A stretch of DNA of 64,000 nucleotides from Bacillota bacterium (GTDB lineage Bacteria; Bacillota; SHA-98; UBA4971), in contig DUSX01000029.1 in assembly GCA_012842395.1 (NCBI GenBank), positions 109 through 64,108 of the forward strand, in the 5' to 3' direction. Positions 20,532-63,390 of the stretch are shown here, one piece after another (position 1 is the stretch's first letter; the number at the start of each line of letters is the position of its first letter). Under the pieces are notes generated by a model. It had not been told where the DNA came from. It did not search any database and was given only the letters and a program-made list of their open reading frames with translations. The translations under genes and the position numbers were made by a program.

Positions 20532-20861
20532 CCGCCCGGCACGGCAACTCGCTGGTAATGGGTGGTAAGGGGTGGGAGCCTCAGCCGGGTAGCTCTGCAT
20601 GATTGTTGCGCACTTGGATACCATATACTCTGCGAGACGGGGTTGGAAAGCGGGCGAGCCCAATGGCACAGTGTTGGAATCACGGTCCAGGCCAAACGCC
20701 CCCACCCCAAGCTGGCTGCGGCGCAGTCGAAAGAGCGCCCGAGTGCCCGAGCGCCCGAGGTTTGACGGGTGGGTGGCAAAACTGAATAAAAATGTCATTA
20801 ATGCAATAGGCTATCAGTGAAGACAGAGCTAAACGAGACCAACTCGAGAGGAGGGACGACG

Positions 20862-21425: not shown

Positions 21426-21455
21426 CGGTGATTTGAGCCAGTATCCTGTGCGTCT

Positions 21456-21660
21456 AAGTATGTCGTCAAGAGTCCGCGCTACTTTTCGGCAGAGTGGTCC
21501 TGCTCAGGGTTGCCGGTGTTGCCCTCCGGGGACGGCGCGCTTGCGGCGCGCCTCGTTCGAATTCGGCGCTTAGGACGGCCGAATTCTCCACGCCCCGTCG
21601 TGCAAGCACCGGCAACCCCGCGCCGTCAAGAAGTGAGACGAGAACTTGTGGCGCTATGCT
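21456..21660 (+). repeat. Intergenic hairpin repeat element, copy A (forward orientation, complete)
   Basis: Left end TAAGTATGTCGTCAAGAGTCCGCGC. IR-L AGGGTTGCCGGTG, an about 85-nt GC-rich palindromic core (two GAATTC arms), then IR-R CACCGGCAACCC. Right end CAAGAAGTGAGACGAGAACTTGTGGCGC. Confidence 0.8.
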
Positions 21661-22433
21661 TAGCCGGTGTTCATTCGGGCTCTCCGTCCACCTTTCCCCT
21701 TTTGCTCGACGATTCCCAGGTGGGCTGGGGGATGGGGTCGGGGTGGCCGTCAGGATCTCGCGCAACCCGAGTCGGAACGTGGGTCACCAGGGTAAGGTAG
21801 TGGCTCCCCTGAGGGGGCAGCCTGTCGACGGAAGCAGGCAGCGAGCCGTATGGGCTGGCTGCCTGCTTCCGTCCCTAGCCCGTCTACGCCACCCGCCTCA
21901 GCAGCATAAGGTTATCCGGTCTTCTCTCGCTTTCCGAACTCTCGGGTTGCCGGTGATTGGGTGAGGGGGTGTCGGAACCTGCCGCCTAGCCGGACGGGCT
22001 CGGTTATGGCCTGGCTAAGCGGGCGCCGCTCGGGGCGGCATCGCCGAGCGTAACACCGGCAACTCCGCGCAGTGGGTGTGCTTCGATGTGCCTCCTTGAA
22101 CCGATGAACCGATGTGCCTCGTTGGACCGGTGCTCCCTCACGGGGACCTGCAAAGTTGGCCCCGGCAGGCTGTCCATCGGCACGGTGGTGTCGGTGGGAA
22201 CGCGGTAGTGTGAACCTGAAGTGACAGGCGGCGTTCGTGTTGCCTGCAAGCCTGCGCTGTAGTACAATTGGCCTGTGCGTCTCCCACCGCCGGCGCATCT
22301 CGCGATTGCCGAGGACGGCGGTCGCGAGTGAAGGACTTGACGCCGCGCGCACGCTCTGGTGCTAGCGCGCAGGCAGCCCGCGGGCATTGGGGCGTGCGTT
22401 AAGTACCCATTAGGGCATGCGAGGCATCGGTAG

Positions 22434-29261: not shown

Positions 29262-29486
29262 CTGCCGCAAGTTTTCGTCTCCTTTCTTGCCGACGCCAGC
29301 GTTGCTGGTGCTTGCGCGACGGGGCGTGGAGGATTTGGCTATCTCGCGCGCCCGATTCGAACGAGGCGCGCCGCAAGCACGCCGTCCCCGGAGGGCGGCG
29401 CCGGCAACCCTGCGGAAAACCCCCGGGCTGACTGGGGAAGATTCCCGCGCTGAAAAGTGGCGCGAACTTTCGGCGATCTACATATT
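29262..29486 (-). repeat. Intergenic hairpin repeat element, copy B (reverse orientation, complete)
   Basis: Reverse complement of the copy A architecture: CAAGTTTTCGTCTCC...GTTGCTGGTGCTTG core CCGGCAACCC...CGCGAACTTTCGGCGATCTACATATT. Confidence 0.8.
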
Positions 29487-32908: not shown

Positions 32909-33131
32909 TTGAGGTTGCATCGGTCTCTGCCCCATTCCCGTCGGTTGCCGGGTTGCCGGCGTTGCACTCTGGGACGCCGCCACGATCAGGGCGCGCTTCG
33001 CCAAAACCCGAGTTTGCGTTTTCGGGAGCATCCTGCTAGAATGTGAGTGTGCACAATAATGTAAACATGGCTCCAGCGGGAATGCCGTCGGTGCGTGCTC
33101 GCGCTGGACGCGCACCGAAGGCAGACAGGGG

Positions 33132-48489: not shown

Positions 48490-49745
48490 CTACCGAATGG
48501 ATTAGGAGAACATACAGGGTCCTCCTCGTCCTTCTGGTCTGCTCGCTGGCGGCCGCCGTGCCCGCGGCCGCCGGCTCCTCCCCGAGCGAGGGGGCCCGCC
48601 CGACGGTGGTCCTGGTCATCCTTGACGGCTGCGCTGCTTACTCATTGGACTTGCTGCCATCCGAGGCATATCTCAGGCAGGCGGCGGCGGAAGGGTTCTA
48701 CCAGCACGTGCGGACCGTGTTCCCGTCTTCCACGGCAGCCGGACATGCGGCCATACTGACCGGCAAGTGGCCCGATGAGAACGGGGTCACAGGCAAACAG
48801 TTCATGGGGAGCGACGGGACGCTGAATGGGTTCAGCTCGCCTCAATTGCTGGAAGCTCCCACAGTGATCGAACGGGCGGCGAAGGCTGGCCTGCGCACAG
48901 CATTCATTTCCGGGAAGGAAGGAGTCAGGTCGCTGTTCGGCGAAGATGCAGACCTCGCGGTGAGCCCGGCGTCAGTGCCATCATGGGTGCTCGAAGAGGT
49001 CGGGCCTCCTCCGGACGAGTCCACGCAATATGAGGACTACTGCGGCTGGTATGAAAAGCTCGACAGATGGGTGATCGATGTAGCGGGTGCTTTCGTGAAA
49101 GAGGCAGGGCCTGGCGCATTCATCGTGCTTAACCTCGCCGGACCGGATAAGGTGGGACACAGGTTTGGGCCCGTTCCTGCGCCTGAGACCACTCAATGCC
49201 TCATCTCAGTAGGAGAGGCTCTCCGCGGTCTGACAGGAGTCCTCGAGGAGGTCGCGAGGGAGGACTGGGCTGTAGTGGTCACCGCAGACCACGGGATGAC
49301 CAGCGTGAGCAAGGCCATTGTGCCGTCAGAGCTGTTCGGAGGCATTGCCGACGATGGCTTGGCATACAGCCTTGACGGAGGTGTCTTGTACGCGTGGCCG
49401 ACGCCGACAACAGAGGAAGCTGTGGTAAGCGCGCTCAAGGGCGCTGAAGGCGTAGCGGAGGTCATCACGACGTCAGACGAAAGACGGGCGCTTCTTCACG
49501 CGTCGCATCCGAGGAGTGCCCCGATCATCGCGATAGCACGCCAAGGTTACATGTTCACTGAGTCCAGCGCGTTCATGGAGTATACGAAGGGCAGCCACGG
49601 AACGCTTCTTGATACAGACGTAATGGTCCCATTAATGGTCTACGGACCCCAGGCGGTCAAGACCGGCATTGGTATCAGCGAGATCGGAGACACAGTGGAG
49701 ATAGCGGGGGTACTCGCCGAGCTCTTGGGCGGCCTGGGGGACTGA
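48486..49745 (+). CDS. Secreted alkaline-phosphatase-superfamily enzyme, nucleotide pyrophosphatase/phosphodiesterase-like
   Basis: Signal peptide. VVLVILDGCAAYSL...TVFPSSTAAGHAAILTGKWPDENGV is a metal/nucleophile-site pattern of type I phosphodiesterase/NPP-like AlkP-fold enzymes. GPDKVGHRFG further supports this. Confidence 0.75.
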   Translation: MTTEWIRRTYRVLLVLLVCSLAAAVPAAAGSSPSEGARPTVVLVILDGCAAYSLDLLPSEAYLRQAAAEGFYQHVRTVFPSSTAAGHAAILTGKWPDENGVTGKQFMGSDGTLNGFSSPQLLEAPTVIERAAKAGLRTAFISGKEGVRSLFGEDADLAVSPASVPSWVLEEVGPPPDESTQYEDYCGWYEKLDRWVIDVAGAFVKEAGPGAFIVLNLAGPDKVGHRFGPVPAPETTQCLISVGEALRGLTGVLEEVAREDWAVVVTADHGMTSVSKAIVPSELFGGIADDGLAYSLDGGVLYAWPTPTTEEAVVSALKGAEGVAEVITTSDERRALLHASHPRSAPIIAIARQGYMFTESSAFMEYTKGSHGTLLDTDVMVPLMVYGPQAVKTGIGISEIGDTVEIAGVLAELLGGLGD

Positions 49746-49748
49746 GCA

Positions 49749-49876
49749 CATCGCCAGGAGTGCGCGCTACTCTTGGGCGCGAGGGTCCTGCCTGGGGCTA
49801 TCGGGCTTGCCCTCCGGGGACGGCGTGCTTGTTGCGCGCCTCGTTCGAATCTGACGCGCAAGATAGCCAGATACCC
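49749..49876 (+). repeat. Intergenic hairpin repeat element, copy C (forward, right half truncated)
   Basis: ATCGCCAGGAGTGCGCGCTACTCTTGGGCG...GCCCTCCGGGGACGGCGTGCTTGTTGCGCGCCTCGTTCGAATCTGACGCGCAAGATAGCCAGAT. Starts at the stop codon of the AlkP-like gene. Confidence 0.7.
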
Positions 49877-49976
49877 CGCATATCTTCCGGCTTTGCCCGG
49901 CCTTGACTTCGGTCCCGGCGTGTGTTACTATTCTACGTGCGAGAGATGTGGCACCACATAGCCCATAGGTTTGAGT

Positions 49977-51119: not shown

Positions 51120-51440
51120 ATCCACGCTCTCTCCTGTCTGCGGTTGCGGCCTTGTTGGGCGCGAGGTCAGGAACGCTTGCGACTCTTGGGAGCGGTTGAC
51201 GGTCGCTGCGCGGTGGGTGTCAAAACCCGGCCACCCGTCCGGCCCGGCGGGCCGCGCATCCCGCATCCTGTGAGGGTGGCCTGCCGGGGCGCCGTTCCCG
51301 AGGGCAACACCGGCAAACCTAGGCTCGCCCTGACGTTGACGCACTTGCCTTGCTTGCCCCTTGAGTTAAGTTTCCGTCCGGGTGGCATGAATATGCGGCC
51401 CCCTTAGGCTGCCGACTCTGGGACTGAGTGCATCGTCGGC

Positions 51441-51634
51441 AGTTCGCGCTGCTCTGCGGCGCGAGCGTCCCCTGCCTAAGGCTACCTATCGGCCTTGCGC
51501 TCCGCGGCGATGGCGTGCTCTCGGCTCGCATCGTTCGGATCCGGCACACGAGATAGCCGAATTCCGGGCGCCCCGTCGTGCAGGGGCCGGCGGCAACCCG
51601 AACGCCGCCCAAAGGAGGAGACGAGGACTCACGG
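51441..51634 (+). repeat. Intergenic hairpin repeat element, copy D (forward, diverged); an IR-only fragment lies at about 51296-51335
   Basis: AGTTCGCGCTGCTCTGCGGCG...core...CAGGGGCCGGCGGCAACCC GAACGCCGCCCAAAGGAGGAGACGAGGACTCACGG. Upstream fragment GAGGGCAACACCGGCAAACCTAGG resembles the right end of copy G. Confidence 0.65.
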
Positions 51635-51818
51635 AGCGATACTTGATACTTAACTTAGGATGTAAGGCGGCGCGCTGTGCCCGACTCCACTCTTCAAGCC
51701 ATCCCTCGCCTCGTCTCATGCTCTGGGAGATCGTGGTTTCCAGGCGCTTGTGTCTCGGAAACTCGTGTAGTAGAATTGCATGGGGGAATGAGCCACAAGC
51801 TGATGGAGGGACGAACGG

Positions 51819-53670: not shown

Positions 53671-53886
53671 CCTAAAGTATGGCGCCATGAGTTTTCGTCT
53701 CCTTTTCTTGACGGCGTGGGCTTGCCGGTGCTTGCACGACGCGGCGGGGAGGATTCGGCGGTGCCGCGCCGCGCCGAATTCGAACGGGGCGCACCGCAAG
53801 CGCGCCGTCGCCGGAGGGCAAGGCCGATAGCCTTAGGCAGGACCGCCTGGCCGAAAAGCGGCGCGAACTTTTGGCGACATACTTAG
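53671..53886 (-). repeat. Intergenic hairpin repeat element, copy E (reverse orientation, complete)
   Basis: CCTAAAGTATGGCGCCATGAGTTTTCGTCTCC...CTTGCCGGTGCTTG core ...GGCGCGAACTTTTGGCGACATACTTAG. Lies between pdxT and glyA. Confidence 0.8.
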
Positions 53887-56817: not shown

Positions 56818-56899
56818 GTCCTTGCCAGCCCCTCGGCGTAGTAAGAATTCTGCAACTCGAAAACTCGAAAACTCGAATCAGAACGCCTTGCCGGTGCCC

Positions 56900-57112
56900 T
56901 AAGTATGTCGCCAAGAGTTCGCGCCACTTCTCGGCGGAGGGTTCCTCCCCAGGGTTGCCGGCCTTGCCCTCCGGGGACGGCGCGTTTCCGGCGCGCCTCG
57001 TTCGAATTCGGCGCGGCGCGAGACCGCCGAATCCTCCCCGCCGCGTCGTGCAAGCACCGGCAAGCCCACGCTGTCAAGAAGGGAAACGAACACTTATGGC
57101 GCCATATTCAGG
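56900..57112 (+). repeat. Intergenic hairpin repeat element, copy F (forward orientation, complete)
   Basis: CTAAGTATGTCGCCAAGAGTTCGCGCC...CAGGGTTGCCGGCCTTG core CAAGCACCGGCAAGCCC...CAAGAAGGGAAACGAACACTTATGGCGCCAT. Lies upstream of the por operon. Confidence 0.8.
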
Positions 57113-62739: not shown

Positions 62740-62831
62740 GGAGGAGTGCCCGAGCTGGCTTAAGGGAGCGGTCTTGAAAATCGCCAGGGTCCTCTGGGCC
62801 CTCGTGGGTTCGAATCCCACCTCCTCCGCCA
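62740..62831 (+). tRNA. tRNA-Ser: tRNA-Ser (anticodon UGA), long variable arm
   Basis: Acceptor stem GGAGGAG/CTCCTCC. Anticodon stem-loop GCGGT-cTTGAAAa-ATCGC (anticodon TGA). Extended variable arm, T-loop GGTTCGAATCC, encoded CCA. Confidence 0.9.
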
Positions 62832-63005
62832 CTATTTATGTACGTGATGCTATTCGCGTTCGCGATAACACCATGTGTCGCGCGCCCCACGCATTGGCGT
62901 CACATCGCGTCACATCTGGTGTACCCCGCCGGTCCACGGTCGCCCCTTGACGCACGTGCCTCACCGTCAGCATAGCCTCCAGGGGGCCGCAACGCTGTTT
63001 GCGCC

Positions 63006-63172
63006 CAAGTATGTCGCCAAAAGTCCGCACTGTTTTCCGGCGGAGGGGGGCCTGCCCAGGGTTGCCGGTGCTTGCACGACGGGGCGTGGAGAATTTGGCT
63101 ATCTCGCGCGCCAAATTCGAACGAGGCGCGCCGCAAGCGCGCCGTCCCCGCAGCGCAACACCGGCAACCTAG
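63006..63172 (+). repeat. Intergenic hairpin repeat element, copy G: forward left end, core in opposite orientation, alternative right end
   Basis: AAGTATGTCGCCAAAAGTCCGCAC...CAGGGTTGCCGGTGCTTG is followed by a core that aligns with the copy B/E orientation (CACGACGGGGCGTGGAGAATTTGGCTATCTCGCGCGCCAAATTCGAACGAGGCGCGCCGCAAGCGCGCCGTCCCCG). It ends with CAACACCGGCAACCTAGGG. Confidence 0.7.
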
Positions 63173-63390
63173 GGCCCCTGCGTCCGTCGCCGCCGCCGTG
63201 CTCCTGCCCTTGCAGGAGCGGAACGGCTGCACCCACGGCGAGGCCACGGCGAGGCTCGTTCTGCCACGCGCCGGCGACGCTGGACGCGGCGCTGAAGCTG
63301 AACATGATGCTTGGCCGACGTGCGGTGACGATGCGGCACGTCAGCAACGCCCCCGGAGAGCAAGCCGGTAGACGAGGGAGTCGGTGTCGT

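Follow-up and report, generated by a model that had tools for sequence, protein, structure and literature searches.

A one-armed repeat copy with an inverted core within a MITE family of Limnochordia-like Bacillota

Copy G and its neighbourhood

The window (the whole stretch of DNA analysed, positions 1-64000) is a housekeeping chromosomal region with a positive GC skew throughout. It encodes flagellar genes, mfd, spoVT, mazG, divIC, coaX, hflX-dus, greA and lysS, together with an ECF transporter, pdxS, glyA, PFOR and serS, and none of the window ORFs scanned proved to be a mobile-element gene. The genes are ~80-88% identical to those of MAG107. Exact matches to the SerRS come from biogas and bioreactor-type metagenomes, and SerRS relatives at ~74% identity are labelled Limnochordales. 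Dispersed through these 64 kb are about nine copies or remnants of a single repeat family (Table 1).

Copy G (63007-63169) is flanked by serS and tRNA-Ser on one side and a radical-SAM gene on the other. Its left arm reads on the + strand, whereas the - strand carries the core, which is bounded by 12-bp inverted repeats (IRs). The outer TIR, CCAAGTATGTCGCC, is slightly degenerate (CCAAGT in place of CTAAGT...), and the right inner IR is the complement of GGGTTGCCGGTG with one mismatch. With at most one mismatch allowed, 14 occurrences of this 12-mer were counted, where chance would give 0.58. The repeat finder matched 63004-63047 in direct orientation to the left arms of copies A (from 21453) and F (from 56898), while 63054-63169 is 90% reverse-complementary to copy A (21508-21623) and shows 89% direct identity to copy B (29296-29409), which is itself reverse-oriented. 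Three module HMMs (L arm, IR-bounded core, R arm), built from an alignment of the six other subfamily-A copies of the window (A-F), place the L arm and core on the same strand in all six and on opposite strands in copy G. Both approaches therefore bear out the initial claim of the sequence-only reading that the core of copy G is inverted relative to its left arm. The change from L-type arm to R-side core falls exactly at GGGTTGCCGGTG|CTTGC, and the core itself is 97% identical to a canonical core (L111).

Table 1. Positions of the repeat copies, modules and context features in the window
Feature	Position	Strand	Basis
Copy G, L-type arm (AAGTATGTCGCCAAAAGTCCGCAC...CCTGCCCA)	63007..63058	+	nhmmer L module E=1.4e-7; profile class L1, score +113
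Copy G, left inner inverted repeat (GGGTTGCCGGTG)	63059..63070	+	
Copy G, 88-bp core, reverse relative to L arm	63071..63158	-	core HMM 63169-63061, E=1.2e-29
Copy G, right inner inverted repeat (CACCGGCAACCT)	63159..63170	-	
Copy A, canonical L-core-R	21454..21663	+	
Copy B, canonical, insertion in L arm	29264..29485	-	
Copy C, L + core; 3' part and R arm decayed	49741..49901	+	
Copy D, canonical, diverged	51423..51646	+	
Copy E, canonical	53673..53886	-	
Copy F, canonical	56899..57111	+	
Diverged copy, subfamily-B core, type-4-like arms	21935..22075	-	~75% identity to L101, L114, L032
Internally deleted subfamily-B remnant	32950..33050	+	weak core HMM match and the sequence itself
33-nt remnant, inner IR and first ~20 nt of core	51289..51325	-	91% identity to 21506-21538 and many loci
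tRNA-Ser (context)	62740..62831	+	

Copy G had also been described as ending in a different right terminus, GCAACACCGGCAACC. Read on the other strand, this string is the canonical left junction (GGTTGCCGGTGTTGC), which is what an inverted IR-bounded core predicts at this end. The isolated fragment said to share this terminus is real, at the slightly different coordinates 51289-51321 (Table 1), and belongs to a remnant of another minus-oriented copy. Beyond the right inner IR no R arm was found; the flank (63170-63390) is unique DNA, and local alignment with shuffles gave no significant similarity between it and R1 or L1'.

The left arm on the + strand with the core on the - strand was recovered at the copy G locus in 12 of 12 independent consensus assemblies of its species, in which the 211-bp region is 98.6-99.1% identical to the window. 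JGI and ENA are the sources of these assemblies, which represent several studies and both SPAdes- and MEGAHIT-style assemblers. An assembly artefact at a multi-copy repeat would be conceivable in that the source is a metagenome assembly and contigs L134 and L133 break inside the repeat; the identical arrangement across the 12 assemblies and several assembler styles, and the same architecture at other loci, leave this explanation with a negligible probability. Two further contigs end within the repeat at the copy G locus, and the practical warning is that these repeats break short-read assemblies. Both core orientations at one locus were not found among the consensus assemblies compared. In species with 90-93% SerRS identity synteny is kept and no element lies at the copy G site, although the intergenic DNA is too diverged for the exact empty site to be mapped, either for copy G or for the L005 element. 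Copy G is a lineage-specific, fixed and decayed copy, and it is immobile because it is one-armed.

A MITE family with modular arms and a shared core

Each complete element consists of an outer arm L, a 12-bp inner IR, a hairpin-rich core of ~88 bp, a second inner IR and an outer arm R. The TIRs are 190-220 bp apart in 73 of 89 nearest-neighbour TIR pairs among the matches listed, and no ORF is conserved across the copies. Folding of the full unit, as in copy F (56899-57111), gives a single long, imperfect hairpin whichever strand is taken, and the outer ends of the unit are mutually inverted (CTAAGTATGTCGCC...GGCGCCATACTTAG). At the loci listed the element has sharp boundaries, C-TA-|AGT...ACT|-TA-G, beyond which the sequence is random; 79 pairs share the conserved outer ends AGT(A/G)...ACT.

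The copies are dispersed and mostly intergenic, and related genomes differ in which of them they carry. In the metK-GFO intergenic region, an empty site (GGACATAC-TA-GGAAGAGG, reading ACATAC-TA-GGAAG; L162/L156/L165) is filled in L163/L164 as GGACATAC-TA-[type-3 element]-CA-GGAAGAGG. Two nested insertions were also resolved, ...CAAATC-TA-[element]-TA-GAGCAC... in L081 and ...GGGC-TA-[element]-TA-GCCTTGAGCGCC... in L061, and in each the host copy is restored through a single CTAG. Together, the TIRs, the TA duplication at CTAG, the dispersal and the presence/absence polymorphism identify the family as a non-autonomous DNA transposon (MITE) of ~190-220 bp, hosted by a Limnochordia-like high-GC Bacillota lineage; the sequence-only reading had not recognised the unit, with its outer TIRs, as such an element.

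Nested MITEs were observed in L061 (6520-7040), L081 (6560-6960), L032 (5380-5720) and L088 (100-460). The insertions hit CTAG motifs in other copies, either in the core loop GGCTAGCC or at CTTGCTAGGG beside the inner IR, and this nesting suggests self-targeting and self-disruption by the MITEs.

PMC2170065 gives TA duplication with a CTAG preference as the signature of IS630/Tc1-mariner elements, with Tenzen and Ohtsubo cited there, and from this we infer that a transposase of the IS630 family mobilises the repeat. The ~39 window ORFs yielded neither a transposase nor a site-specific recombinase or RAYT of the kind that the sequence-only reading had suggested looking for as able to recognise the IR. 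A search of 1.2 Mb of related DNA for TIR pairs 0.7-2.5 kb apart, as would be expected of an autonomous IS, returned only the ends of neighbouring MITEs.

A scan of 185,579 species genomes with a core 18-mer identified at least 120 loci, and the 120 loci listed, plus the window, contain 144 cores. Most of the listed loci belong to a few high-GC MAGs named 'Bacillota bacterium', including MAG107, Yes71-24, MAG-64 and UBA4981. Literature searches gave no description of the family. Rfam 15 gave only tRNA at the gathering threshold for the window and no match at E<=10 for copy F, and the family appears to be undescribed. Copies closely resembling those of the window also occur on contigs of 'Betaproteobacteria bacterium MAG135' (L049, L104, L111, L118); the L118 copy matches copy A along its full length at 93% identity. 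These contigs are probably mis-binned and from the same Bacillota lineage as the window.

The same core is found between at least four kinds of arm, types 1, 2, 3 and 4. Type 1 arms read AGTAGATCGCC... / ...GGCGCCATACT, type 2 begins AGTGTGGGTTCAGAAATC... and type 3 begins AGTGAGGGTGCAGAAATG.... Arm hybrids occur as L1/R2 (L077), L1/R4 (L103), L2/R1 (L070 and L030) and L2/R3 (L041). With several arm types around one core, and with hybrids, the idea of modularity is supported in this respect. The related proposal that the IRs bracket different cargos does not hold, as the supposedly unrelated core at 21945-22075 is a diverged core homologue with the same fold, in the minus orientation. It belongs to the second of two core subfamilies, B, which keeps the architecture of subfamily A with different stems, and because this architecture matches, it is not unrelated cargo.

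In a hand-derived consensus structure the core forms three hairpins, with the inner IR as the closing stem; the RNAalifold consensus was uninformative. Across 108 distinct core copies 94.6% of cells pair and compensatory changes occur in 20 of 39 pairs, a covariation that is suggestive only because the copies are kin. On the core-forward strand of alignment A2, G-U exceeds A-C by 41 to 10 (columns 33-54) and by 44 to 4 (columns 56-58/101-103). The excess could reflect selection on a forward-strand transcript; it stems from two common polymorphisms rather than from many independent events.

In distant Bacillota MAGs (UBA4981, UBA5449, AS08, AS23) the core was seen without CTAAGT-type arms (loci L008, L025, L045, L078, L093, L100). 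In these arm-less cores the inner IR covaries on both sides, for example GGTGTCAGGTG...CACCTGACACC and GGGTAGCCGGTG...CACCGGCTACCC. The genes downstream differ by eye, one being MoaC-like and one sugar nucleotidyltransferase-like. In tandem contexts the core is co-directional with the neighbouring genes in 21 cases and opposite in 31 (p=0.21). The unbiased orientation and the dissimilar downstream genes argue against a strand-specific regulatory role, and on these two grounds a reading of the core as a riboswitch or leader was rejected. We consider it improbable that the core is a selected three-hairpin DNA or RNA module common to MITE subfamilies with different transposase-binding arms. Were this so, mobilisation might depend on the module in cis, or the module might be a portable regulatory structure, and the inner IRs would be cassette boundaries for exchange and inversion.

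Frequency and origin of the inverted core

The polarity of the core relative to the arms is fixed in ~97% of the copies listed, and ~2-3% are flipped. Among the matches listed, the 5' side of the core holds 83 L1 arms and the 3' side 91 R1 arms; just two type-1 elements listed are discordant, L085, a complete L1-core'-R1 with both arms swapped, and copy G. The type-1 arm classes rest on leave-one-out profile classification and are unambiguous (|score| >88 bits); profiles were used because simple reference-based typing was wrong for copies E and F of the window. Counts of exact junctions in the unbiased set are 50 for the canonical CCAGGGTTGCCGGTG-TTGC and three for the flipped-type string, copy G being the only true flip among the latter.

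A metagenome scan for the flipped junction contributed further loci, giving eight flipped loci in all, of which three are complete (L-core'-R), plus one R-R chimera. Complete L1-core'-R1 flips are found in L085, with its ortholog L148, and in L149/L159. Another complete flip, L151/L155/L156/L160, has the flanks GTC-TA...TA-GAA and comes from the same sample series as the window. An apparently complete type-3 flip is found in L114, with its L3-side arm typed by eye, and incomplete flipped copies in L147, L150 and L152. The chimera, R1'-core'-R2 in L076 (575-760), has both outer TIRs intact. As to IR-mediated flipping of the core, the recurrence of the same rearrangement at other loci supports the idea, while the single polarity of ~97% of copies speaks against flipping that is active or programmed.

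The flipped copies G, L149, L151 and L150 carry four different central-loop variants. Since each variant is also present in canonical copies, the flips are rare but recurrent and probably arose as independent events rather than as progeny of one flipped master copy. Matching copies are L146 for L149 (94% identity) and L118 for L150 (92% identity). Flipped copies whose TIRs are intact could instead stem from transposition that followed a single flip or a few, their cores having been gene-converted later. A search through metK neighbours for a canonical ortholog of a flipped copy returned relatives without that insertion.

The reading we favour, and regard as probable, is that a rare, recombinase-independent event at the inner IRs inverted the core of copy G, a fixed copy that has also lost its R arm. 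The core would have been turned round between the identical inner IRs, with the breakpoints inside the IR, the likeliest event being a template switch from one IR arm to the other during replication ('IR spacer inversion'). Short-IR intramolecular recombination would be an alternative event with the same product. All flipped copies make the switch at the 12-bp inner IR. In copy G, L085, L149 and L151 the switch point is at GGGTTGCCGGTG, and the L arm, as well as the R arm where present, is unchanged. We infer this molecular mechanism by comparison with described cases, as template switching between short IRs is given as a cause of spacer inversion in PMC8604942; the elements described here are strongly prone to hairpin formation. 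IR spacer inversion leaves the stretch between two short inverted repeats as its own reverse complement, with breakpoints in the IR arms, an outcome also seen here; it is rare and recurrent, as are the flips here, and needs no recombinase, as proposed here (PMC8604942; PMC7202029). The ~88-bp spacer of the family is at the long end of the range, spacers of <=70 bp having been used in PMC5941160.

Copy G might otherwise be an inter-copy chimera formed by an illegitimate or short-homology join within the 12-16 bp inner IR of a (+) copy and a nearby (-) copy. The left IR of one copy equals the right IR of the other, and such a join would delete the interval to give L-IR-core'-IR-L', later truncated. 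The R1'-core'-R2 element of L076, with its intact outer TIRs, is a product of the reciprocal type, and the arm-type hybrids show that parts are exchanged between copies. In sister strains the 6-8 nt after the right IR of copy G (CCTAGG) resemble the inner end of L1, and a stretch of this type recurs at the 51289-51325 fragment. However, further than ~8 nt from the IR the right flank cannot be matched significantly to L1' (p ~0.4-0.9), and the copy G locus holds no pair of elements in the sister species. The same population also contains complete flips that retain a normal R arm (L149, L151), so that a flip plus truncation suffices for copy G, and the chimera is the less likely origin, with perhaps a modest chance.

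The fixed polarity bears on two further explanations. If the core were an autonomous mobile hairpin, with the 12-bp IRs as its termini, that inserts in either direction into an L-R element, the arm-less cores with covarying IR stems in distant MAGs and the occurrence of one core between at least four arm types would be accounted for. The observed polarity is ~97:3 and not ~50:50, though, and no L-R element without a core is present among the ~140 copies listed, which together make this explanation decidedly unlikely. The IR/arm junctions also have no duplication, and the arms extend the base-pairing of the long hairpin.

The IR-flanked core would be a programmed invertible switch if a site-specific recombinase recognised the 12-bp IR, and the perfect 12-bp IRs around an asymmetric segment, together with the existence of both polarities in the family, have the appearance of such a system. 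Against this stand the single orientation in 12 of 12 consensus assemblies, the flipped share of only ~3% of copies, and the window itself, where neither recombinase nor RAYT was found. The orientation of the core is unbiased with respect to neighbouring genes (p=0.21), so that any output would be independent of orientation, and a ~88-bp spacer would be very short for synapsis. Taken together, the ~97:3 polarity, fixation, lack of a recombinase in the window, gene context and short spacer make a programmed switch very unlikely, even more so than the autonomous hairpin. The flagged feature of copy G is an ordinary product of decay and rearrangement and no new regulatory switch.

Relation to known elements and further observations in the window

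By description the family is most like the bacterial MITEs mobilised by IS630/Tc1-mariner elements, for example RUP of Streptococcus pneumoniae (PMC2229807), which is also short (~100-200 bp), lacks an ORF, and has TIRs and a TA duplication. RUP likewise has a long stem-loop fold and is dispersed and mostly intergenic. RUP-type MITEs also insert into other mobile elements, as the family described here does into its own other copies. Unlike RUP, it has a second, inner IR bounding a conserved three-hairpin core, at least four arm types and two subfamilies, and its host is an uncultured high-GC Bacillota lineage; no partner IS was found in the DNA searched. This two-tier IR design with a conserved core common to the arm types is unusual.

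In the Correia/NEMIS elements of Neisseria, alternative end variants give mixed forms. These elements resemble the present family in having TA termini and four related forms in one family (PMC2229807), and the two have no sequence relation. Their described variation consists of end variants and the presence or absence of an internal 50-bp segment; an inverted core is not part of that description. BIME/REP sequences are intergenic mosaics of palindromic modules in alternating orientation, as is the case here. A TIR/TSD architecture is absent from REPs, which are tied to RAYT transposases; the present family has outer TIRs and a TA duplication at CTAG, and no RAYT was found in the window.

The result documents an abundant and apparently undescribed MITE family in Limnochordia-like Bacillota from biogas- and compost-type metagenomes. 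It also provides a natural series of probably independent IR-spacer inversions at no fewer than eight loci, which is usable for the study of template switching at hairpin-forming repeats.

The R arms of the window copies contain an RBS-like AAGGAGA followed ~8-10 nt later by ATG, GTG or TTG, at 53690-53715 (-), 57078-57100 (+), 21628-21655 (+) and 29270-29297 (-). No conserved ORF was found after these sites, and with an RBS-like motif and start codon in the R arm an insertion could donate a Shine-Dalgarno sequence and a start downstream. Between copy A and the subfamily-B copy, a 47-nt inverted repeat unrelated to the family (21827-21873; GGAAGCAGGCAGC...GCTGCCTGCTTCC) has no Rfam match and sits in a 770-bp gene-free stretch downstream of spoVT. 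Between mfd and spoVT, MAG107 has a complete type-2 element (L005, 5000-5230), compared with 27 nt in the window (20620-20650; AGGATAGCCGCCCGGCACGGCAACTCG) that include the IR-like CGGCAAC and may be the deletion remnant of an old copy.
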